Source of the DNA: Dehalococcoidia bacterium
Lineage (GTDB): Bacteria > Chloroflexota > Dehalococcoidia > Lucifugimonadales > UBA3495
Assembly: GCA_034423215.1 (NCBI GenBank)
Contig: DAOUIY010000060.1
Span: forward strand, 11,305-75,304
Length of the DNA stretch: 64,000 nt
Direction of reading: 5' to 3'
The notes beneath the pieces were generated by a model, which worked only from the letters and a program-made list of their open reading frames with translations, did no database searches and had not been told where the DNA came from. The position numbers were made by a program, and so were the translations under genes. Positions 4,182 to 62,033 of this stretch are shown in pieces. Position 1 is the stretch's first letter. Each line of letters starts with the position of its first letter.

Positions 4182-4442
4182 CTAAAACACCTGGAAGATG
4201 GCGAAAATGCCCCGGTTGAACAACTCGGCGAACACCCGGTCCAGGCCCCCCAGGAAGAACCCCACGGCCACCGACAGGGCAATAACGATGGCGGTAAGCC
4301 GGGCCGTCTCCTCCTTGCTGGGCCAGACCGACTTCCTCAGTTCCGCCACCACCTCCTGCAGGAACGTGATCGGGCTTACCCGACCCATGCTGCGGGGGCT
4401 GATGGGCGACTGGTTGCGTTGCTGGGCGCTTACCCGGGCCAT
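4182..4442 (-). CDS. secE: preprotein translocase subunit SecE
   Basis: FLQEVVAELRKSVWPSKEETARLTAIVIALSVAVGFFLGGLD is the SecE signature with a single TM. Position lies between rpmG and nusG. Confidence 0.88.
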   Translation of the reverse strand: MARVSAQQRNQSPISPRSMGRVSPITFLQEVVAELRKSVWPSKEETARLTAIVIALSVAVGFFLGGLDRVFAELFNRGIFAIFQVF

Positions 4443-5005: not shown

Positions 5006-6190
5006 CTAGTCCAGCAGCTTGGTAATCACGCCCGAGCCCACCGTGCGGCCACCCTCGCGAATGGCGAAGCGCTGCCGCTCTTCCAGGGCGATGGGGGTAA
5101 TCAGGTTCACGGTCATGGTTACGTTGTCGCCGGGCATTACCATTTCCACGCCTTCCGGCAGGGTAATCTCCCCGGTGATGTCGCTGGTCCGGATGTAGAA
5201 CTGGGGCTTGTACCCGGAGAAGAAGGGGGTATGCCGCCCGCCTTCCTCGCGGCTCAACACGTAAACCTCAGCTTCCGCGTACCGGTGGGGCTGCATGGAG
5301 CCCGGCTTCACCACCACCTGCCCGCGCTCCACCTCGTCCCGGTCCACGCCGCGCAGCAGAATGCCCACGGCATCGCCGGCCTCGGTGGAATCCAGCAGCT
5401 TGTGGAACATCTCCAGGCCGGTGGCCACGGTGCGGCGCACGTCGCCCGACCGGATGATTTCAATTTCCTCGCCCTGCTTCAGCATCCCGCGCTCAACGCG
5501 GCCGGTCACCACGGTGCCGCGGCCCTTGATGCCGAATACGTCCTCGATGGGCATCAGGAAGGGACGGTCGGTCAGGCGCTCGGGAACGGGAATGTACTCG
5601 TCCATCGCCTGCACCAGGTTCGCCACGCCCTCCATGGCCTCCGGCTCTCCCTCCATCGCGTTCAGGGCGCTCACCCGCACGATGGGGGTGTCGTCGCCGG
5701 GGAAGTCGTAGGTGGAGAGCAGCTCCCGCACTTCCAGTTCCACCAACTCCAGCAGTTCCTCGTCATCCATCATGTCAACCTTGTTCAGGGCGACCAGGAT
5801 GCGGGGCACTTCCACCTGGCGGGCCAGGAGAATGTGTTCCCGGGTCTGGGGCATGGGGCCGTCCGGGGCGCTCACTACCAGCACTGCTCCGTCCATCTGG
5901 GCGGCGCCGGTAATCATGTTCTTGATGTAGTCTGCGTGGCCGGGGCAGTCCACATGGGCATAGTGGCGGGTATCGCTTTCGTACTCCACGTGGGCGATAG
6001 CGATAGTCACGCCTCGCTCCCGCTCTTCCGGCGCATTGTCAATGCTGCCGAAATCCCGGAAGTTGGCCATTCCCTTCTCGGCCATCACCCTGGTAATGGC
6101 AGCGGTGAGGGTGGTCTTGCCGTGGTCAACGTGACCGATGGTGCCCACATTTACGTGGGGCTTGGTACGATCGAACTGCTGCTTGGCCAT
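5006..6190 (-). CDS. tuf: translation elongation factor Tu
   Basis: [18 protein letters not shown] and NKVD GTPase motifs. Full-length EF-Tu-like 394 aa. Confidence 0.98.
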
Positions 6191-6227
6191 CTCTTGTCTT
6201 ACTCTCCTGCTTTTCCTTTGGGAATGA

Positions 6228-6302
6228 TGGAGCCCAGAGGCGGGATTGAACCGCCGACCCCGTTCTTACCAAGAACGTGCTCTACCGCTGAGCTATCTGG
6301 GC
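6228..6302 (-). tRNA. tRNA-Thr (anticodon GGU), CCA encoded
   Basis: Reverse complement GCCCAGA TA GCTC AGCGGTA GAGC A CGTTC TTGGTAA GAACG GGGTC GGCGG TTCAATC CCGCC TCTGGGC T CCA folds by hand into a cloverleaf. Confidence 0.92.
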
Positions 6303-6347
6303 TCGCGCCCCCGAATGTGGAATTAGATTTGATTTTACCAAATTGGG

Positions 6348-6435
6348 TGGTGGAGGGGGCAGGATTCGAACCTGCGAAGTCCTTCCGGACGCCAGATTTA
6401 CAGTCTGGTGGCTTTAACCACTCACCCACCCCTCC
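6348..6435 (-). tRNA. tRNA-Tyr (anticodon GUA), long variable arm, CCA encoded
   Basis: Reverse complement GGAGGGG..CCAGA CTGTAAA TCTGG CGTCCGGAAGGACTTC GCAGG TTCGAAT CCTGC CCCCTCC A CCA. Confidence 0.9.
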
Positions 6436-6518
6436 CTGCCGGCGCCTGACGCCATCACTGGAGACACGGCTTAAAAAACCCATTCTACCCGGCCCCGCCG
6501 GGTAGGGATAGTAATCTA

Positions 6519-6593
6519 TGGAGCCCCAGAGGGGACTCGAACCCCTAACCTGCCGATTACAAATCGGCTGCGCTACCGTTGCGCCACAGGGGC
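6519..6593 (-). tRNA. tRNA-Thr (anticodon UGU), CCA encoded
   Basis: Reverse complement GCCCCTG TG GCGC AACGGTA GCGC A GCCGA TTTGTAA TCGGC AGGTT AGGGG TTCGAGT CCCCT CTGGGGC T CCA. One T-T mismatch in the acceptor stem. Confidence 0.85.
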
Positions 6594-6715
6594 AGACACT
6601 ATCGTTAGACTAGAAAAAGGCCCCGCAACGTCGGGGCCATTAAACCAGCCAACTTGATACGCAAGAAATTATATAAAGGCCAAGGGCAGGTTGTCAATTG
6701 GCCGTGCTTGCATTT

Positions 6716-6847
6716 CAGGGCAAACGCAATCTAAGTTTGTGGAGACTCCGTCGATCCCGCGCAGGCGGGAACCTCGAGCTTGTTCGACCGAGAATCGGAC
6801 CCTTTAGTAGCGCTAATGACTCGTTCGTGTGTGCCAATGCGTTTGGC
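6716..6847 (+). repeat. interspersed MITE-like repeat, family E (TIR gggcaaacgcattct)
   Basis: cagggcaaacgcaatctaag...tccgtcgatcccgcgcaggcgggaacctcgag...gccaatgcgtttggc. The ends are inverted repeats. Confidence 0.7.
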
Positions 6848-7069
6848 ATGGCTGTCAATTAGCCCGTTGTCAATTGCTATGGTTGGAAGTTTGCCCCGAT
6901 GCCAAATCAAAGCCGAGGTGAAATGGACATTGCCCCTTCTCCCCTCTCCTTGGGGAGGGGGCCGGGGGTGTAGGCTGCCCTCTAAATCTACCTAAATCAC
7001 AGCAAGGCAAAAATGTACATCTCACTCTGGTATTGGTTTAGAATGACTGCGTACATTGCGAGGGGCGTT

Positions 7070-8095
7070 ATGACACTAAGCCGAATCGAATTGGAGAGAT
7101 TTACCGCCTTTGATAGCCTGAACCTGGCGCTTTCTCCCGGCATTAACGTCATGGTGGGACCCAATGGCACGGGCAAGACGCATCTGATGAAGGCGTGCTA
7201 TGCCGCCTGCGACGTTTCCAGGAAGCCGGATGTCTCTTTCGCTGCCAAATTGCTGAACGTCTTTCTGCCCTACCGCCGGGAGCCGGGAAGGTTGGCCCGG
7301 CGCAAGAAGGACGGCTCCCGCGCTTCGGTGACGGTATGGGCAGGCAACCGTTCCATAAGCGCGTCCTTCTCAGGCCGCACCAAGTCTGCGGCGTCCGTTG
7401 ACGTGAAGGGAACGGAGAGTTGGACGAAAAACTCCATCGAAAGCGTCTATATCCCGGCAAAGGAAATGTTGTCTAACGCTCCAGGATTCCGGTCGCTTTA
7501 TTCAACTCGGGAAATACACTTTGACGAGGTTTATGCGGACATTCTCGACCGCGCCTATTTGCCGGCCTTGCGCGGCGCCCTGGATGTGCCCCGCCGCAGT
7601 ATCGTTGACACCTTGCAGGGTGAATTACAGGGCAAGGTAGTTATCAAGAATGAGGAGTTCTTTCTTCAGAATGGCCGGGTAGAGTTGGAGTTTACCTTGC
7701 TGGCGGAAGGACTACGCAAGCTGGCTCTGCTGCTGGTGCTAATCCTGAACGGTAGCCTGCATCCCGGTTCAGTCCTGTTCTGGGACGAACCGGAAACGAA
7801 CTTGAACCCCAGGCTGTTCGGCACAGTAATGAACATACTCTTGGAACTACAACGAAACGGCGTCCAGGTATTCCTGGCAACCCACGACTACGTCATCCTG
7901 GAAGAGCTTGACTTCAGAAAACGGGAGGAGGATGAGGTAGCCTTTCATTCGCTGTACCGAGACGATGAAACCGGTGAAATAGCCTGCAACACGGCGAACA
8001 ATTACCTGGGCATTCATCCCAACGCAATCGCGGAAGCGTTTGACGACCTGTATGACCGTGAAATTGAGCGCAGCTTGGGACACCTAAGGCAATGA
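7070..8095 (+). CDS. ABC/AAA_21-type ATPase (SMC/RecF-like head), candidate defence ATPase
   Basis: Walker A GPNGTGKTH, signature-like LAEGLRKLALL, Walker B VLFWDEPETNLNP, H-loop LATHD. Started at ATG 7070 (MTLSRIELERF) rather than ORF-track 7013. Sampled line 7441-7500 has 29/60 GC. Confidence 0.75.
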   Translation: MTLSRIELERFTAFDSLNLALSPGINVMVGPNGTGKTHLMKACYAACDVSRKPDVSFAAKLLNVFLPYRREPGRLARRKKDGSRASVTVWAGNRSISASFSGRTKSAASVDVKGTESWTKNSIESVYIPAKEMLSNAPGFRSLYSTREIHFDEVYADILDRAYLPALRGALDVPRRSIVDTLQGELQGKVVIKNEEFFLQNGRVELEFTLLAEGLRKLALLLVLILNGSLHPGSVLFWDEPETNLNPRLFGTVMNILLELQRNGVQVFLATHDYVILEELDFRKREEDEVAFHSLYRDDETGEIACNTANNYLGIHPNAIAEAFDDLYDREIERSLGHLRQ

Positions 8096-8595
8096 CGGTG
8101 TTGACCGAAGGTAACTTGCAATTGACGGTCAACGGCGCCGTCGCCGCATGGAAGTTTGACGATTCTGGGCACGGACTGAGCCACTGCATGAAAGCGGTGG
8201 ATTTCATCATTGAACTCGACGACTGCTATTTGTACATTGAGTTCAAAGACCCCCAGTCTGACACTGCGACCCAGCGAGCTACGGAAAATTATCTGGCAAG
8301 TCTTCAGAAAGGTCAGCTTGACGAGGACTTCAAGTATAAATACCGGGATTCTTACCTTTATGAATGGGCAACGGGCCGTGCCGACAAGCCAATTGACTAT
8401 CTGGTCTTGATTGCCCTCGACACCTTGAAAACGCCCTTGTTGCGTCAACGGCGAAGAGAACTGGAAAGGAAGTTGCCCGTGCTAGGGCCAGGTGGACAAC
8501 CTTGGCCCCGGCCGATAGTGCGTAGTTGCTCCGTGTTTAACATGGATACCTGGAACCGCAATTTTCCTGACTATCCGATTACGCGGTTAACGTAG
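8092..8595 (+). CDS. hypothetical protein with PD-(D/E)xK nuclease-like motif
   Basis: ATGA overlap with the ATPase stop. AVDFIIELDDCYLYIEFKD gives D37...E50-x-K52, the classic restriction-endonuclease-fold spacing. No other family recognised. Confidence 0.55.
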   Translation: MTVLTEGNLQLTVNGAVAAWKFDDSGHGLSHCMKAVDFIIELDDCYLYIEFKDPQSDTATQRATENYLASLQKGQLDEDFKYKYRDSYLYEWATGRADKPIDYLVLIALDTLKTPLLRQRRRELERKLPVLGPGGQPWPRPIVRSCSVFNMDTWNRNFPDYPITRLT

Positions 8596-8647
8596 CCAGC
8601 TTGCCAGGACACCTGGATGCCCTCAACGCACCCCAGCCACCCCCCCA

Positions 8648-10513
8648 TCACCTCAATACCCGCTCATCCCCCACCCGCCGTGTTATCCGCTGCTGGTCCA
8701 TGTACTCCAGCAGGGGCAGGCTGTACTTCCGGCTGGTGTCGAACATGGTGCGCACGTCTGCCACCGTTATTGACTCCTTTTCTTGTAGGTGGGCCACTAT
8801 CCGCTCCGTAATTTCCCGGTAGGCTGAGGCCGCGAACACCACCGACTCATTCACCCTTACCACCTTCCCCTCGTCTATCAGAAAGCCCAGCAGTTCCGGT
8901 TCCGGGTGGTTCTCCGTGGGCGGCGAGTAGGGCTCCCGCTCCAGGGATGCCAGGTACAGGCTGGCCCGCCGCTCCAGTTCCTCCGTCAGCGTAACCTGGT
9001 GGTCCGGCAGGCGAACCTGCTGCCCCTCCTCCACCAGGCAGCCCTCTTCCACCAGCCGGGCCAGGGCTCTCAGGTAAACCCCCTGCGAAAGCCCCGTGCG
9101 GCTCCGTATTTCCTGGGTGGGCGCCCCCCGGCGCAGGGGATAGTTGTTGTGGTAAGTTTGCAGTTCCACCCCCACCCGGCTCTGGAAAATATCCCAGCCC
9201 TGGGACGAATAGACCACCGCGTCGTTGTCTGCCCCCAGGTTCCCCAGGACCACCAGGTCGCCGGCCTTGGCCAGTTGCAGGGCCCGTTCCAGGGCTTCCT
9301 CCGAAGAGAGATTGCTGCGTTGCGAAAGAGTCCGCAGGTCGCAGGGGCCCCACTGGTCCGCGACGCTGTAAATTATGTCCTCGCCCGTGCCCTGGTCCAG
9401 CATCATCAACTGCTCGATGGTCTCGGGACTGAAACGCCGGTGACGGCGGCGGGGATTAGGGTCCACCACCTGCCCGCCGCCCAGGGTGTCCTCGGCCGAC
9501 CGCAGCACAAAGTAGTCCCCCTTCACCATGGGGATGGGGTCGTCCAGCAGAATCTGTATCCACCCCTCCTCGCCGGGGGCCAGGCGGTCGGCGTCCAGCA
9601 GCCGCACCCGGGCCGTGGTCTCGCTGGTGAACAGGTGGAAGGTGATGCCGGCGTTGTGCCGCAGGGCATGGGGCGCCCCGGACACCATGCGCAGGCGGGC
9701 GTCCACCCTCCGGGTTGATGTCAGCCATCCCGGAAGCGTGACCACCTCGCCCCGTTCGATATCCGCCCTGGCAACGCCCGACAGGTTCACCGCCAGTCGG
9801 ACGCCGGGGTCGCTGCGGTCCACCCGCTCCTTGTGGCTCTGCAGCCCGCGTATGCGTCCCCGCATCCCCGAAGGGGCCAGCTCAACCTCCTGGCCCACGG
9901 CGAACATCCCGTCAATCAGGGTGCCCGTAACCACCGTTCCAAACCCCGATATGGAGAAGCACCGGTCCACCGGCAGGCGGGGGCGGCCCAAATCCCGCCG
10001 CGCTCCGGTCTGGTCCAGTATGTCGTCAATGGTGGCCTTCAACTCCTCCATCCCGGCCCCGGTGAAGGCCGACACGCCGATCATCTGGCAGCCCTCAAAG
10101 GAGGTACCGGCCACTGCGTCCTCCACCTCGGCTTTGACCAGTTCCACCAGTTCGTCGTCCACCAGGTCCGCCTTGGTCACCACCACCAACCCGCGCTTGA
10201 TTTGCAGAATATCCAGGATGGCCAGGTGTTCCCTGGTCTGCTGCATCACGCTCTCATCGGCGGCCACTATCAGCAGGGCCAGGTCAATGGCCCCCACGCC
10301 GGCCAGCATATTCTTGATCAGCCGCTCGTGCCCCGGCACGTCCACGATGCTCACCTCCCGTCCGCTGGGGAGGGTCATCCAGGCAAAGCCCAGGTCAACC
10401 GTCATCTCCCGCTCCTTCTCTTCGGGAAGGCGGTCCGGGTCAATATCGGTCAGGGCCTTAACCAGGGTTGACTTACCGTGGTCAACATGGCCGGCAGTGC
10501 CAATTACGTACAT
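8648..10513 (-). CDS. selB: selenocysteine-specific translation elongation factor SelB
   Basis: GTAGHVDHGKSTL, DVPGHE and TKADL GTPase motifs, EF-Tu-like domains II/III and a long C-terminal winged-helix extension (621 aa). Confidence 0.85.
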   Translation of the reverse strand: MYVIGTAGHVDHGKSTLVKALTDIDPDRLPEEKEREMTVDLGFAWMTLPSGREVSIVDVPGHERLIKNMLAGVGAIDLALLIVAADESVMQQTREHLAILDILQIKRGLVVVTKADLVDDELVELVKAEVEDAVAGTSFEGCQMIGVSAFTGAGMEELKATIDDILDQTGARRDLGRPRLPVDRCFSISGFGTVVTGTLIDGMFAVGQEVELAPSGMRGRIRGLQSHKERVDRSDPGVRLAVNLSGVARADIERGEVVTLPGWLTSTRRVDARLRMVSGAPHALRHNAGITFHLFTSETTARVRLLDADRLAPGEEGWIQILLDDPIPMVKGDYFVLRSAEDTLGGGQVVDPNPRRRHRRFSPETIEQLMMLDQGTGEDIIYSVADQWGPCDLRTLSQRSNLSSEEALERALQLAKAGDLVVLGNLGADNDAVVYSSQGWDIFQSRVGVELQTYHNNYPLRRGAPTQEIRSRTGLSQGVYLRALARLVEEGCLVEEGQQVRLPDHQVTLTEELERRASLYLASLEREPYSPPTENHPEPELLGFLIDEGKVVRVNESVVFAASAYREITERIVAHLQEKESITVADVRTMFDTSRKYSLPLLEYMDQQRITRRVGDERVLR

Positions 10514-10614: not shown

Positions 10615-10751
10615 AGGGGGTGTCGTCAAATGCACCGTCATTCCTGCGAAGGCAGGAATCTTAACTACTGCCGGTCGAGGTTCCCGCCTTCGCGGGAACG
10701 ACGAAAAGGGACGCTAGAAAGCCCCCACATTCAATTTGACGACACCCCCTA
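10615..10751 (+). repeat. interspersed MITE-like repeat, family B (TIR agggggtgtcgtcaaat; two internal hairpins)
   Basis: agggggtgtcgtcaaatgcaccgtcattcctgcgaaggcaggaatc...ggtcgaggttcccgccttcgcgggaacgacg...atttgacgacaccccct. Near-identical copies at 31007-31143 and 44641-44781. Confidence 0.85.
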
Positions 10752-11025
10752 GCGACACTACATTGATGGCCCCGCTCGGGGGATATTTTCGACTGCGATG
10801 GTAGAAGACTTCAAGGTGTGCAATCCCGGAATCGCTGAGTCGAACGAAATCTGTGTCGCTTGTATAGACGATTCGCCCTAATTGCCCAGCTACGTCGAGG
10901 ATTTCCGGATCAGGCCTGCCCCGAAGGCCCAGGTCCTGTACCGAGACTGCGTTAATGCCTTGAATTCTTAAACCGTCTATAACATCAAACCGGATATGTT
11001 CATCACAAAGCAATGAAAGCGGCAT
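10714..11025 (-). CDS. DUF5615-like PIN-fold putative toxin; 3' end runs into a family-B repeat
   Basis: MPLSLLCDEHIRFDVIDGLRIQGINAVSV...IVYTSDTDF. 1-nt start/stop overlap with the DUF433 gene. The last ~12 codons (GGVVKLNVGAF*) are encoded by repeat sequence. Confidence 0.6.
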   Translation of the reverse strand: MPLSLLCDEHIRFDVIDGLRIQGINAVSVQDLGLRGRPDPEILDVAGQLGRIVYTSDTDFVRLSDSGIAHLEVFYHRSRKYPPSGAINVVSLGGVVKLNVGAF

Positions 11026-11306
11026 CAGCGCTGCTCTACTTCCATCCTCTTGGCAAATTCCTCGTCGTCCTTGATGTCCCCCTCAATCTCCACCGCATGC
11101 TCATAGTAGTGCGACAGGGCGGCGTGGATTTGCGCCCGGTCAAGGTGCGGATGAGACTTGCAAATCTCGTCCACGCTCAGGCCCATGTGAACGTACTCCA
11201 GGGCTATGTGCTGGACCTTCATGCGTGTGCCTTCAATGCGGGGCTTCCCGCCGCAAATTCCTTCATCCTGCACAATGTAGCCTGTAGAGATATGTCTTGA
11301 CGCCAT
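11025..11306 (-). CDS. DUF433-family putative antitoxin
   Basis: ICGGKPRIEGTRMKVQHIALEY matches the DUF433 core (CGGxPxIxGTR). Sits upstream of and coupled to the PIN-like gene. Confidence 0.7.
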   Translation of the reverse strand: MASRHISTGYIVQDEGICGGKPRIEGTRMKVQHIALEYVHMGLSVDEICKSHPHLDRAQIHAALSHYYEHAVEIEGDIKDDEEFAKRMEVEQR

Positions 11307-11678
11307 TTGCTGCTTCCTCTTAGCCCTTGGAGGCTTTCGTAAAATTAAAGGCGAAAGCCTCTTTAGAAACTATCTCAAAAGTCCCTTCCCCCTTGAAGGG
11401 GGAAGGTTAGGATGGGGGTGAAAAGATAGTGTAGCAGCCCCTTTTATTGGCAAATCAACAGTTTTGAGATAGTTACTCACCATCCCCCTTTCGTCATTCC
11501 CGGCCCCACGGAAACGACGGATTAGGCCGGTTCAATCATCATTTCAAATCTGTCAGACTGCTAAACCAATACCAAGCTGAAATGCGCATAGTTCCATCTC
11601 CCCTCGCCCTCTGGGAGAGGGGCTGGGGGTGAGGGCTGTCACCTATAGGTAGGGAGAAGAAGCCAGCCTGAACTTAGA

Positions 11679-12617
11679 CTATTCACTATCAGGGGCAGAC
11701 GAAATATAACCTAGACCTTGGTGGTTCTCAACTATTTTAGCGGCTTCCGTGTGCCCGAAAGTATGCATAGTTGCGTGATATACGGTTAAGACCAGATCCT
11801 GCAATTGCTGATCACTCTCCAGGTCTGACAAGCGAAGTCGGGGGTCGAAGTTCCTTAGCTCTGACCTGAAGACGCCTCGGGAATGAGTCAAATGCGTGGC
11901 ATGATCAGTCAAGTAATTTGCGAGAATTTCCGACTTTTCTTCCCGTTGTTCTTTAGGGAAATCGGCGAACATGTAGCGGGAAAGCCAGCCTCGGACCACA
12001 GATGCGGAAAGAGCGGAAGCATTGTCAACTTCCACCAGCAGGGCAGGGCCACATTGATGCAACATGTCGGCCCAAACAGGATACTCCTCAGGATCTCTTA
12101 GGCAGGCTTCCCTTGCCCGTTCAAATTGCTCGGTTATGGCTTGGCCCGGAACCATTCGAAGACCGAAAGGAGTTTGCAGCAGGAATTGAGGGTCTATGGG
12201 GCCCAGGGTTGAATGGGCCGCCATGACGATTTCATCGGCTACGAACGCCAGTATTGTACCTGCTGACATTGCCATGTGCGGAACGAATACCCGTATGGCA
12301 TCGAATTTTTCCCTCAGGTATTCCCCAATCGCTTCGGTGGCTTCAACCGATCCACCAGGGCTGTGTAGTATCAGGTCTAGGGACGGCCCATTCAAACCGT
12401 GAACGGCTTCCATAAAACCTTGCATGTCTGAATGATCTATGGAAGTCAAAGAGGGGGCCCAGGGCTTTTGTAAATGGCCACTGGCATAAAGGATGACATC
12501 ATTGCCGGTGTAGCGGTGAAGATTTTCGATAGCTTGGCGACGCACCATGTCATGCGCGTCTTCAGGGGAAATAGCCATCCCTTGAATCTGGTCTATTATT
12601 TTGCCCCATGTCGGCAT
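11679..12617 (-). CDS. SDH-family (SppA/ClpP-fold) serine protease
   Basis: DLILHSPGGSVEATEAIGEYLREKFDAIRVFVPHMAMSAGTILAFVADEIVMAAHSTLGPIDPQ matches the serine dehydrogenase proteinase family core as I remember it. Sampled line 11701-11760 has 27/60 GC. Confidence 0.7.
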   Translation of the reverse strand: MPTWGKIIDQIQGMAISPEDAHDMVRRQAIENLHRYTGNDVILYASGHLQKPWAPSLTSIDHSDMQGFMEAVHGLNGPSLDLILHSPGGSVEATEAIGEYLREKFDAIRVFVPHMAMSAGTILAFVADEIVMAAHSTLGPIDPQFLLQTPFGLRMVPGQAITEQFERAREACLRDPEEYPVWADMLHQCGPALLVEVDNASALSASVVRGWLSRYMFADFPKEQREEKSEILANYLTDHATHLTHSRGVFRSELRNFDPRLRLSDLESDQQLQDLVLTVYHATMHTFGHTEAAKIVENHQGLGYISSAPDSE

Positions 12618-20426: not shown

Positions 20427-20558
20427 CAGGGCAATCGCATTCTAAATTTGGAGAGTCCGTCGTTTCCGCGGAGGCGGGAACCTCGAATCTGGCAGGTAAT
20501 GTACCAGGCCCCCCCTTAACCTTCGGGAATCCGGCCAGGTGGGAGAACGCTATTGCCC
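20427..20558 (+). repeat. interspersed repeat, family E
   Basis: cagggcaatcgcattctaaatttggagagtccgtcgtttccgcggaggcgggaacctcgaa...cccttaaccttcgggaatccggccaggtgggagaacgctattgccc. Colinear with 29954-30096. Confidence 0.8.
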
Positions 20559-29953: not shown

Positions 29954-30096
29954 TGTATGCCCCCAGGTCAAACGCATTCTGAATTTTGGGAGAGTCCGTC
30001 GTTCCCTCGCAGGCGGGAACCTCGAACCTGGCAAGTAATGTATCAGGTCCCCCTTAACCTTCGGGAATCCGGCTAGGTGGGAGAATGCGTTTGCCC
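29954..30096 (+). repeat. interspersed repeat, family E
   Basis: caggtcaaacgcattctgaattttgggagagtccgtcgttccctcgcaggcgggaacctcgaacc...ggtgggagaatgcgtttgccc. Confidence 0.8.
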
Positions 30097-37590: not shown

Positions 37591-37728
37591 TGGGGCGTGT
37601 CGTCAAGAAGAAGGTGGAAGTTGCCGAACCCCCACTTCGTCGTTCCCGCGAAGGCGGGAACCTCGACCGGCTGGAGTCGAGGTTCCTGCCTTCGCAGGAA
37701 TGACGGTGCAATTGGCGCCACCCCCTAA
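37591..37728 (-). repeat. interspersed repeat, family B (inverted orientation)
   Basis: tggggcgtgtcgtcaag...tcgttcccgcgaaggcgggaacctcgaccgg...ggttcctgccttcgcaggaatgacggtgcaattggcgccaccccctaa. Contains the MFS gene stop codon. Confidence 0.75.
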
Positions 37729-38974: not shown

Positions 38975-39345
38975 CAGGGCAAACGCATTCTAATGCGCAA
39001 GAGTCGTCGTTCCCGCGAAACCGGGAACCTCGAACCTCGAAGCCCAGCCCGAGGACTTCTACATCGTCGTTCCCGCGAAACCGGAAACCTCGAACCTCGA
39101 AGCCCAGTCCGAGGACTGCTACATCGTCGTTCCCGCGCAGGCGGGAACCTCGAACCTCGAAGCCCAGTCCGAGGACTTCTACGTCGTCGTTCCCGCGAAA
39201 CCGGAAACCTCGAACCTTGAAGCCCAGTCCGAGGACTGCTACATCGTCGTTCCCGCGCAGGCGGGAACCTCGATCCCGGCAAATAATATCCCAGGGCCCG
39301 TCTATCCCTGGGGATTCCGGTCAGGGAGAGAATCCGTTTGCCCTG
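38975..39345 (+). repeat. family E repeat expanded by an internal 60-bp tandem array
   Basis: Termini cagggcaaacgcattcta ... agaatccgtttgccctg are inverted repeats. Fills the whole divergent MFS / CoA-transferase intergenic region. Confidence 0.8.
39003..39273. repeat. 60-bp tandem repeat, ~4.5 copies
   Basis: Unit tcgtcgttcccgcgaaaccgggaacctcgaacctcgaagcccagcccgaggacttctaca recurs with exact 60-bp phase and a few substitutions. There is no unique spacer sequence. Confidence 0.9.
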
Positions 39346-44640: not shown

Positions 44641-44781
44641 CTAGGGGGTGTCGTCAAATCCACCGTCATTCCTGCGAAGGCAGGAATCTTAACTACTGCC
44701 GGTCGAGGTTCCCGCCTTCGCGGGAACGACGAAAAGGAGCAGTTCGGAAGCTACCACTTTCAATTTGACGACACCCCCCAG
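44641..44781 (+). repeat. interspersed repeat, family B
   Basis: ctagggggtgtcgtcaaatccaccgtcattcctgcgaaggcaggaatc...ggtcgaggttcccgccttcgcgggaacgacg...caatttgacgacacccccc. Confidence 0.85.
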
Positions 44782-61776: not shown

Positions 61777-62033
61777 CTAGGGCGTGTCGTAAATTGCACC
61801 GTCATTTTTGCCAAGGAAGGGAGCTTTACTGCTGCTGGTCGAGGTTCCCGCCTTCGCGGGAGCGACAAAACTATTGCCGGTCGAGGTTCCCGCCTTCGCG
61901 GGAACGACGAAACTATTGCCGGTCGAGCTTGCCGCCGGTGCGGGAACGACGAAACTATTGCCGGTCGAGGTTCCCGCCTTCGCGGGAACGACGAAACTAT
62001 TGCCGGTCGAGGTTCCCGCCTTCGCGGGAACTA
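61777..62033 (+). repeat. family B repeat (left end) expanded by a 42-bp tandem array
   Basis: ctagggcgtgtcgtaaattgcaccgtcatt..., then unit ggtcgaggttcccgccttcgcgggaacgacgaaactattgcc x ~4.7 from 61837. The third unit has a mutated hairpin. Confidence 0.85.

Follow-up and report, generated by a model that had tools for sequence, protein, structure and literature searches.

The locus and its gene boundaries

Two adjacent genes on the plus strand of a 64,000-nucleotide stretch from a Dehalococcoidia bacterium (assembly GCA_034423215.1, contig DAOUIY010000060.1; the whole stretch is called the window below) encode an ATP-binding cassette (ABC)-type ATPase of 341 amino acids (7070..8095) and a small partner of 167 amino acids (8092..8595), a putative PD-(D/E)xK (NERD-like) nuclease effector. 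Judged by its sequence, the pair is assigned to the anti-phage system HEC-02 as a divergent member, and the pairing itself is already known. Very probably, the locus represents an intact, complete HEC-02-type anti-phage module, which was acquired horizontally and lies among core genes of a Dehalococcoidia-like genome.

HEC-02 (Hma-embedded candidate 02) comprises an ABC ATPase and a NERD-like PD-(D/E)xK protein (10.1101/2024.01.29.577857). In E. coli, the HEC-02 pair of Dickeya dianthicola NCPPB 3534 reduced the plaquing of several phages (Payne et al. 2024, 10.1101/2024.01.29.577857, Figs 2B, S3A), and both genes are needed for this protection (10.1101/2024.01.29.577857). The assayed pair consists of WP_024108366 and WP_024108365, the sequences of which are taken from Table S2 of the same work (10.1101/2024.01.29.577857). 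According to its authors, HEC-02B structurally resembles a predicted NERD model, the candidate cassettes are widespread irrespective of Hma (Fig S1 legend), and the sensing by HEC-02 and the role of ATP are still to be determined (10.1101/2024.01.29.577857). In the literature, no later paper was found that renames HEC-02 or explains its mechanism.

The original prediction for this locus, made from the nucleotide sequence, described a two-gene module and assumed that the ATPase starts at 7070. Both open reading frames (ORFs) of this module are present: the longest ATPase frame in the ORF list is 7013..8095 (plus strand), and the second frame, of 167 amino acids, is 8092..8595. Similarity to the HEC-02A profile, as well as to 78 homologues, sets in exactly at the 7070 ATG, the ATPase called by gene finders in an identical public contig has 341 amino acids, and direct reading of the sequence reveals a Shine-Dalgarno-like GAGGGG (7060..7065, plus strand) located 4 nt 5' of this codon. 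Because homology onset, gene callers and GAGGGG agree, the true start of the ATPase is placed at the ATG at 7070, from which its residues are numbered here, and not at the start of the longest ORF at 7013.

The stop codon of the ATPase gene and the start codon of the partner gene overlap in an ATGA (8092..8095, plus strand; direct sequence reading), as had been correctly noticed before. Among the homologous loci, too, an overlap of 4 bp is the most frequent junction (52 of 78), and all their junctions fall between -17 and +10 nt. The ATGA overlap suggests translational coupling of the ATPase and its partner.

The pair occupies a 2-kb gap between tRNA-Thr(TGT) (6519-6593, minus strand) and selB (8648-10513, minus strand), which confirms the placement originally given; tuf and two more tRNAs are found farther upstream. 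The GC content of the pair is 53.7%, compared with 60.5% for the whole window (3.4th percentile among windows of the same size), 64.0% for tuf and 64.9% for selB. At the third codon position (GC3), the values are 0.61-0.67 for the pair versus 0.83-0.85 for tuf and selB. The low GC content reported in the original prediction is right in its direction; its size was overstated by the sampled lines, which gave about 48% versus 70% (29/60 versus 42/60).

The intergenic region 5' of the ATPase gene (6594..7059) is presumed to hold the promoter of the pair; no sigma-70-like promoter was found on its plus strand. A search for additional RNA elements in 6000-9000 was also negative, with only three tRNAs passing and with matches to GcvB and permuted tmRNA (transfer-messenger RNA) far below threshold.

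The ABC-type ATPase

The product of the first gene is predicted to be a compact ATPase of the ABC type, in which every nucleotide-binding motif is present and in canonical order. Walker A, GPNGTGKTH (G30-P-N-G-T-G-K36-T37), is followed by the signature LAEGLRKLALL (L211-A-E-G-L-R-K-L218), Walker B VLFWDEPETNLNP (F237-W-D239-E240-P-E242), the D-loop (N244-L-N-P247) and the H-loop LATHD (T271-H272-D273). Walker A, the signature, Walker B and the H-loop are all there as the original prediction had listed them; across 79 homologues, conservation of these motifs and of the D-loop is 97% or higher. In the ATPase alignment including the Dickeya protein, the ABC motifs are invariant or at least 90% conserved.

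Pfam assigns the protein to AAA_21 (3e-22) and AAA_15 (2e-10). NCBIfam yields nothing specific: the matches to Rad50 and RecF cover about 45 N-terminal residues, that is, Walker A, and stay far below the cut-offs. The Rad50, SbcC or RecN type was considered for this protein and rejected, since with its 341 amino acids it has no coiled-coil insert. A profile of 34 ATPases, including that of Dickeya, matches only ABC-class chains in the PDB, namely Rad50, PtuA (Septu, retron Ec78), nucleotide-binding domains of FtsE and other transporters, AriA of PARIS and OLD nucleases. Each of these matches is confined to one part of the protein, the Walker A end in some and the signature/Walker B region in others.

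Conservation and predicted fold of the small partner

The candidate catalytic residues of the small protein are D37, E50 and K52, the last two forming E50-F-K52. This D37...E50-x-K52 pattern had been read correctly in the original prediction and is conserved among homologues. All three residues are invariant in 34 close homologues, as is R85. Among 51 diverse homologues, which extend down to about 22% identity and include that of Dickeya, there is no variation at D37, E50 and W154, and conservation reaches at least 90% at K52, D53, K83 and D86 as well as at E6, F22 and D23.

An AlphaFold2 model built on the alignment of 34 sequences has a pLDDT (predicted local distance difference test) of 86 and a pTM (predicted template modelling score) of 0.85. 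In this model, D37 stands just before strand 38-41, while E50 and K52 lie within strand 46-52, the two strands making a beta-hairpin. Helices 61-95, strand 101-107, a further helix and strand 143-149 come next, which is the order of elements in the PD-(D/E)xK core.

Foldseek comparison of the model with the PDB and BFVD gave no match at E <= 0.001. The best match, the small subunit of R.BspD6I (2p14), is subthreshold (E 0.038, probability 0.84, template modelling (TM) score 0.36), and so are the entries at the top of the PDB list, most of which are PD-(D/E)xK proteins: EcoO109I, BstEII, Hjc, the RecB nuclease and N.BspD6I. The Foldseek list is therefore taken as weak evidence, pointing in the direction of PD-(D/E)xK. 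At the level of sequence, the best PDB match of the profile of diverse homologues is a DUF1887 (Card1/Can2-type) nuclease, with the alignment falling exactly on D...ExK and a subthreshold E of 0.087; PDB searches with the single small protein and with the profile of close homologues gave nothing meaningful.

Pfam and NCBIfam contain no match for the small protein of the window, including none to TOPRIM, HNH or DUF4435. Weak Pfam matches occur among the 51 relatives. The most frequent is NERD, found in three of them with a best E of 0.0086, below threshold; DpnII, SduA_C, PDDEXK_9, DUF2726 and SfsA are each matched weakly by a single relative. Membership of Pfam NERD (PF08378) was tried and rejected at the curated gathering threshold, the window protein having no match to it even at E <= 10 and the three relatives matching it at E >= 0.0086. 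In our reading, the small protein belongs to the PD-(D/E)xK superfamily and is NERD-like, but separate from Pfam NERD. It is most likely an active enzyme.

Assignment to HEC-02

Both window proteins were searched against the defence models of PADLOC-DB v2. The ATPase matches the HEC-02A model PDLC04213 with E 4e-124 over profile positions 1-335 of 337, and it also matches PDLC04146 (5e-63) and PDLC04214 (5e-54). The small protein matches the HEC-02B model PDLC04229 with E 4e-59 over positions 1-168 of 171. Nine further HEC-02B sub-models are matched by it as well, and no PADLOC models other than those of the HEC-02 partner. The arrangement typical of HEC-02 is also kept, with adjacent genes on the same strand and the ATPase gene first. 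The window locus thus agrees with HEC-02 in every sequence-level feature examined, and a standard PADLOC run would call it HEC-02.

The naming of these models in PADLOC-DB v2 is inconsistent. PDLC04146 is labelled HEC-02B yet represents the ATPase (Dickeya ATPase 8e-183, window ATPase 5e-63), and PDLC04145 is labelled HEC-02A yet represents the small partner; the later sub-models 04213-04229 use the opposite convention.

The ATPases of the window and of Dickeya are 33% identical (E 9e-54). For the small proteins, BLASTP gives 29% identity over residues 1-59 alone (E 5e-4); in the multiple alignment, they are about 22% identical. When the profile of 34 close homologues is compared with the Dickeya partner by hhalign, the probability is 93% (E 2.6e-7), and D37, E50 and K52 of the window protein are set on D43, E56 and K58 of the Dickeya protein. 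In the PADLOC scan, the Dickeya pair belongs to sub-models PDLC04146/04145 and the window pair to PDLC04213/04229; the Dickeya proteins cross-match the window sub-models (PDLC04213 2e-83, PDLC04229 7e-7). Since the two pairs match different sub-models yet cross-match, the window pair is classified as the same type of system as the Dickeya pair, in a sister subfamily.

The original prediction placed the combination of an AAA_15/AAA_21 ATPase with a partner carrying a nuclease motif in the class of ATPase-plus-nuclease anti-phage systems, and this view is supported. It also suggested that the pair could be a variant or new pairing, in which a defence ATPase is joined to a previously unlinked nuclease. 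Such novelty would be consistent with a small protein that has no match in Pfam, NCBIfam or PDB sequences and is not HNH, TOPRIM or DUF4435. However, both partners match existing HEC-02 models at full length, and the pairing has been published and assayed, so that a new pairing is scarcely credible. The original prediction had itself named mapping to an already described system as evidence against novelty, and the PADLOC profile search maps the pair in just this way. The small partner had been left unmatched to any effector family because it was compared with HNH, TOPRIM and DUF4435 effectors only; the NERD-like partner of HEC-02 was overlooked.

One feature of the small protein might conceal something new. 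Just ahead of D37, the small protein has a conserved loop H27-G-L-S-H31-C32-M33, which the Dickeya protein does not have. The loop is part of residues 22-36 (F22-D23...H27-G-L-S-H31-C32-M33-K-A-V36), the best-conserved stretch of the subfamily and the sole low-confidence part of the AlphaFold2 model, with pLDDT <50 at 28-32. These residues may become ordered only on binding of the ATPase or a ligand. It has been considered that the PDLC04213/04229 subfamily is a functionally distinct HEC-02 variant marked by the HGLSHCM loop, a possibility to which we give a small chance. The loop might act as a switch gated by a metal or by the ATPase, or it might recognize the substrate in a different way, so that the trigger or target could differ from that of the Dickeya system.

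Pairing and distribution across genomes

Relatives of the small protein are numerous. A word search recovered 749 of them, and a HMMER scan (E <= 0.001) gave 836 clusters at 50% identity, nearly all of them standalone proteins of 160-185 amino acids. By a pattern scan with one genome per species, relatives were found in at least 319 species. Lineages and loci were retrieved for the best 80 relatives listed; among these, metagenome-assembled genomes of Dehalococcoidia, Caldilineaceae, Binatia, Latescibacterota, Vicinamibacterales and Spirochaetia prevail.

An ATPase homologue is encoded directly upstream and on the same strand at all 80 loci. The ATPase match is partial at two of them, one situated at a contig end and the other matching only from residue 188. 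Clustering of the flanking ORFs at 78 loci revealed no conserved third gene: the largest cluster is a generic paralogous family, present at 25 loci and on both sides of the pair. Constant adjacency and the lack of a common flanking gene family make the HEC-02 module here a strict two-gene unit with obligate pairing. With hundreds of homologues for both ORFs and the arrangement found at 80/80 loci, the pairing is beyond chance. Correlation in the A-versus-B mirror-distance test is modest (Pearson 0.43, Spearman 0.30) and is therefore not taken as evidence of co-evolution.

This HEC-02 subfamily, with matches in at least 319 species genomes, is common in uncultured lineages whose phages have hardly been studied by experiment, and the two-gene module spreads across phyla.

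Genomic context and mobility

The pair is found at the same spot, between the tRNA/tuf block and selB, in an identical metagenome contig (84.8 kb) and in two related Dehalococcoidia genomes. In comparison with the window, the two related genomes have 94% identity in Tuf and 89-91% in SelB; the ATPase (72-73%) and the partner (78-80%) are more diverged than Tuf and SelB. All remaining loci have a genomic context different from that of the window.

One further metagenome contig, encoding a SelB with 90% identity, has neither the pair nor tuf downstream. Because the gene content of this relative differs there, the junction 3' of selB is regarded as variable or rearranged. On the same contig (L086 7960-8652, minus strand), a 230-amino-acid Zn-ribbon-like protein with N-terminal CxxC pairs is encoded convergently to selB where the window has HEC-02, and glyA, rpsF and ssb come next.

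Homologues share about 60% identity with the window pair, whether they come from the same class or from other phyla. Two plasmids, one conjugative and one mobilizable, carry relatives, and a scan of viral contigs with the close alignment located a single contig with a relative. Together with the differing contexts and the GC3 deficit, the cross-phylum identity of about 60% and the copies on mobile elements indicate that the pair was acquired horizontally and then kept by vertical descent within a small clade.

Two explanations of the position of the pair were tried and abandoned. A tRNA-linked island was rejected, as the tRNA genes have the pair on their 5' side and neither an integrase nor att-like direct repeats are present; for the same reasons, the nearness to tRNAs is probably incidental. 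The defence-island hypothesis is unsupported, none of the six neighbouring proteins having a PADLOC match.

The location among core genes (tuf, tRNAs and selB), kept in three related genomes and outside a defence island, could also be expected of a housekeeping or DNA-repair module, in which a small Rad50/RecF-like ATPase would work with a nuclease outside any immune system; the N-terminus of the ATPase does match the Rad50 and RecF profiles. However, these matches are limited to the first 45 residues or so, far below the cut-offs, and the coiled-coil insert is missing. The patchy distribution, the identity of about 60% across phyla, the atypical GC3 and the lack of the pair in the relative with 90% identical SelB argue against a repair module. 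So do the strong defence-model matches of both proteins and the anti-phage activity of a homologue. Such a role for the pair is considered very improbable.

Proposed mechanism and weighing of the assignment

PARIS, Septu and Gabija suggest by analogy that the two proteins would be produced in a coupled manner and form a complex. Within it, the ABC ATPase could sense the infection or act as a gatekeeper. A cue from the phage, acting via ATP binding or hydrolysis, would release or activate the PD-(D/E)xK partner, which could then cut nucleic acid, most likely DNA because of its predicted restriction-endonuclease fold. Cutting would either destroy the phage genome or abort the infected cell.

Some PD-(D/E)xK enzymes cut RNA. 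A HEC-02-like sequence could accordingly conceal a PARIS-style action, with the small protein being an RNase (e.g., tRNA-cleaving) or a toxin held by the ATPase, and with a purely abortive outcome. After HEC-02, the next best PADLOC match of the ATPase is AriA of PARIS (E 1e-23, C-terminal half), and the PDB profile search likewise recovers AriA. The source paper, moreover, explicitly leaves the mechanism of HEC-02 undetermined (10.1101/2024.01.29.577857). Against this stand an effector that is not TOPRIM, the confinement of the AriA similarity to generic ABC motifs, the top structural neighbours, which are DNA enzymes (restriction endonucleases, Hjc, RecB nuclease), and the lack of evidence of toxicity. 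PARIS-style action is regarded as unlikely.

Several points weigh against the interpretation of the locus as a horizontally acquired HEC-02 defence module with a nuclease effector. The nuclease assignment is not statistically secure by structure (Foldseek E > 0.001, best TM about 0.36), the window protein has no Pfam or NCBIfam match, and NERD is matched by just 3 of the 51 relatives. Phage protection was demonstrated for the Dickeya pair alone, to the small protein of which that of the window is just about 22% identical, with BLASTP similarity spanning residues 1-59 only. The same position beside tuf and selB in three related genomes fits a stably kept non-mobile function too. The locus is outside any defence island and is not embedded in Hma, as judged from six neighbours. 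Finally, complex formation, trigger and substrate are proposed by analogy alone.

The HEC-02 assignment is retained, and HEC-02 is the annotation that the locus should receive instead of being listed as a possible new system. As Payne et al. noted for these candidates (10.1101/2024.01.29.577857), the module can occur by itself among core genes and away from defence islands. The conserved D...ExK triad and the ABC motifs offer ready-made mutant targets for studies of the HEC-02 mechanism.

Other features of the region

A dispersed palindromic repeat resembling repetitive extragenic palindromic (REP) elements has the core GTCGTCGTTCCCGCGCAGGCGGGAACCTCGA and the hairpin TTCCCGC/GCGGGAA. Its copies are located at 6716-6777, 10675-10703, 20427-20486, 29964-30025, 37638-37666, 39005-39273, 44703-44731 and 61839-62029; the copy at 39005-39273 is composed of five tandem 60-nt units. 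The copy at 6716-6777 lies upstream of the HEC-02 ATPase gene and is probably the family-E repeat that the original prediction reported in the gap between tRNA-Thr and selB.

On the minus strand of the same gap, a perfect sigma-70 consensus promoter, TTGACA-18-TATAAT (12/12; 6697->6668), faces the tRNA and tuf genes. It is followed at 6638-6619 by a 7-bp all-GC hairpin with a T-run, directly upstream of tRNA-Thr(TGT). The placement of a terminator-like hairpin between a promoter and this tRNA gene is odd.

A second low-GC block (10714-12617, minus strand; GC3 about 0.51-0.70) encodes a DUF5615/DUF433 toxin-antitoxin-like pair (10714-11025 and 11025-11306, minus strand) and an SDH_protease/NfeD1b_N protein of 312 amino acids (11679-12617, minus strand), none of the three proteins having a PADLOC match. 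The block is absent in the syntenic relative L084, in which a DNA_alkylation gene comes directly after selB.

Comparison with known systems

Identity of the pair with PARIS, Septu, Gabija or OLD was rejected because the effector fold differs: the partner lacks TOPRIM, HNH and UvrD helicase domains, and the matches of the ATPase to these systems are partial (E 1e-9 to 1e-23). Septu and Gabija are likewise ABC ATPase-based defence systems, and the N-terminal Walker A region of the window ATPase matches the PtuA and GajA models, the matches being weak and partial and covering the N-terminal 45 residues (E 1e-9 to 1e-11). Their ATPases are larger (450-650 amino acids). The effector of Septu (PtuA + PtuB) is HNH, and Gabija (GajA + GajB) combines an OLD-type ATPase-TOPRIM protein with a UvrD helicase.

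PARIS is also a two-gene defence module of an ABC ATPase and a nuclease, and AriA is the nearest ATPase model outside HEC-02 (PDB 8ux9, 8v45). PARIS offers a plausible model for the mechanism: upon sensing a phage protein, the scaffold formed by the ATPase frees the nuclease. However, the effector AriB is TOPRIM/DUF4435, in contrast to the PD-(D/E)xK partner predicted in the window, and AriA is about 460 amino acids long with other inserts.

With NERD (PF08378), the small protein of the window shares the D...(D/E)xK motif on a beta-hairpin. Lacking a Pfam match, it is better described as a member of a separate NERD-like PD-(D/E)xK family.

The closest counterpart is the Dickeya HEC-02 pair. 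The HGLSHCM loop before the catalytic Asp distinguishes the window subfamily from the Dickeya protein, and the host of the window pair is an uncultured Dehalococcoidia-like bacterium, compared with an enterobacterium. The window pair is not embedded in Hma, which was the route of discovery and not a requirement. Both systems share an ABC ATPase of about 340 amino acids followed by a partner of about 170 amino acids, the gene order and strand, the ATPase motifs and the D...ExK of the partner, with D37/E50/K52 in the window corresponding to D43/E56/K58 in Dickeya.

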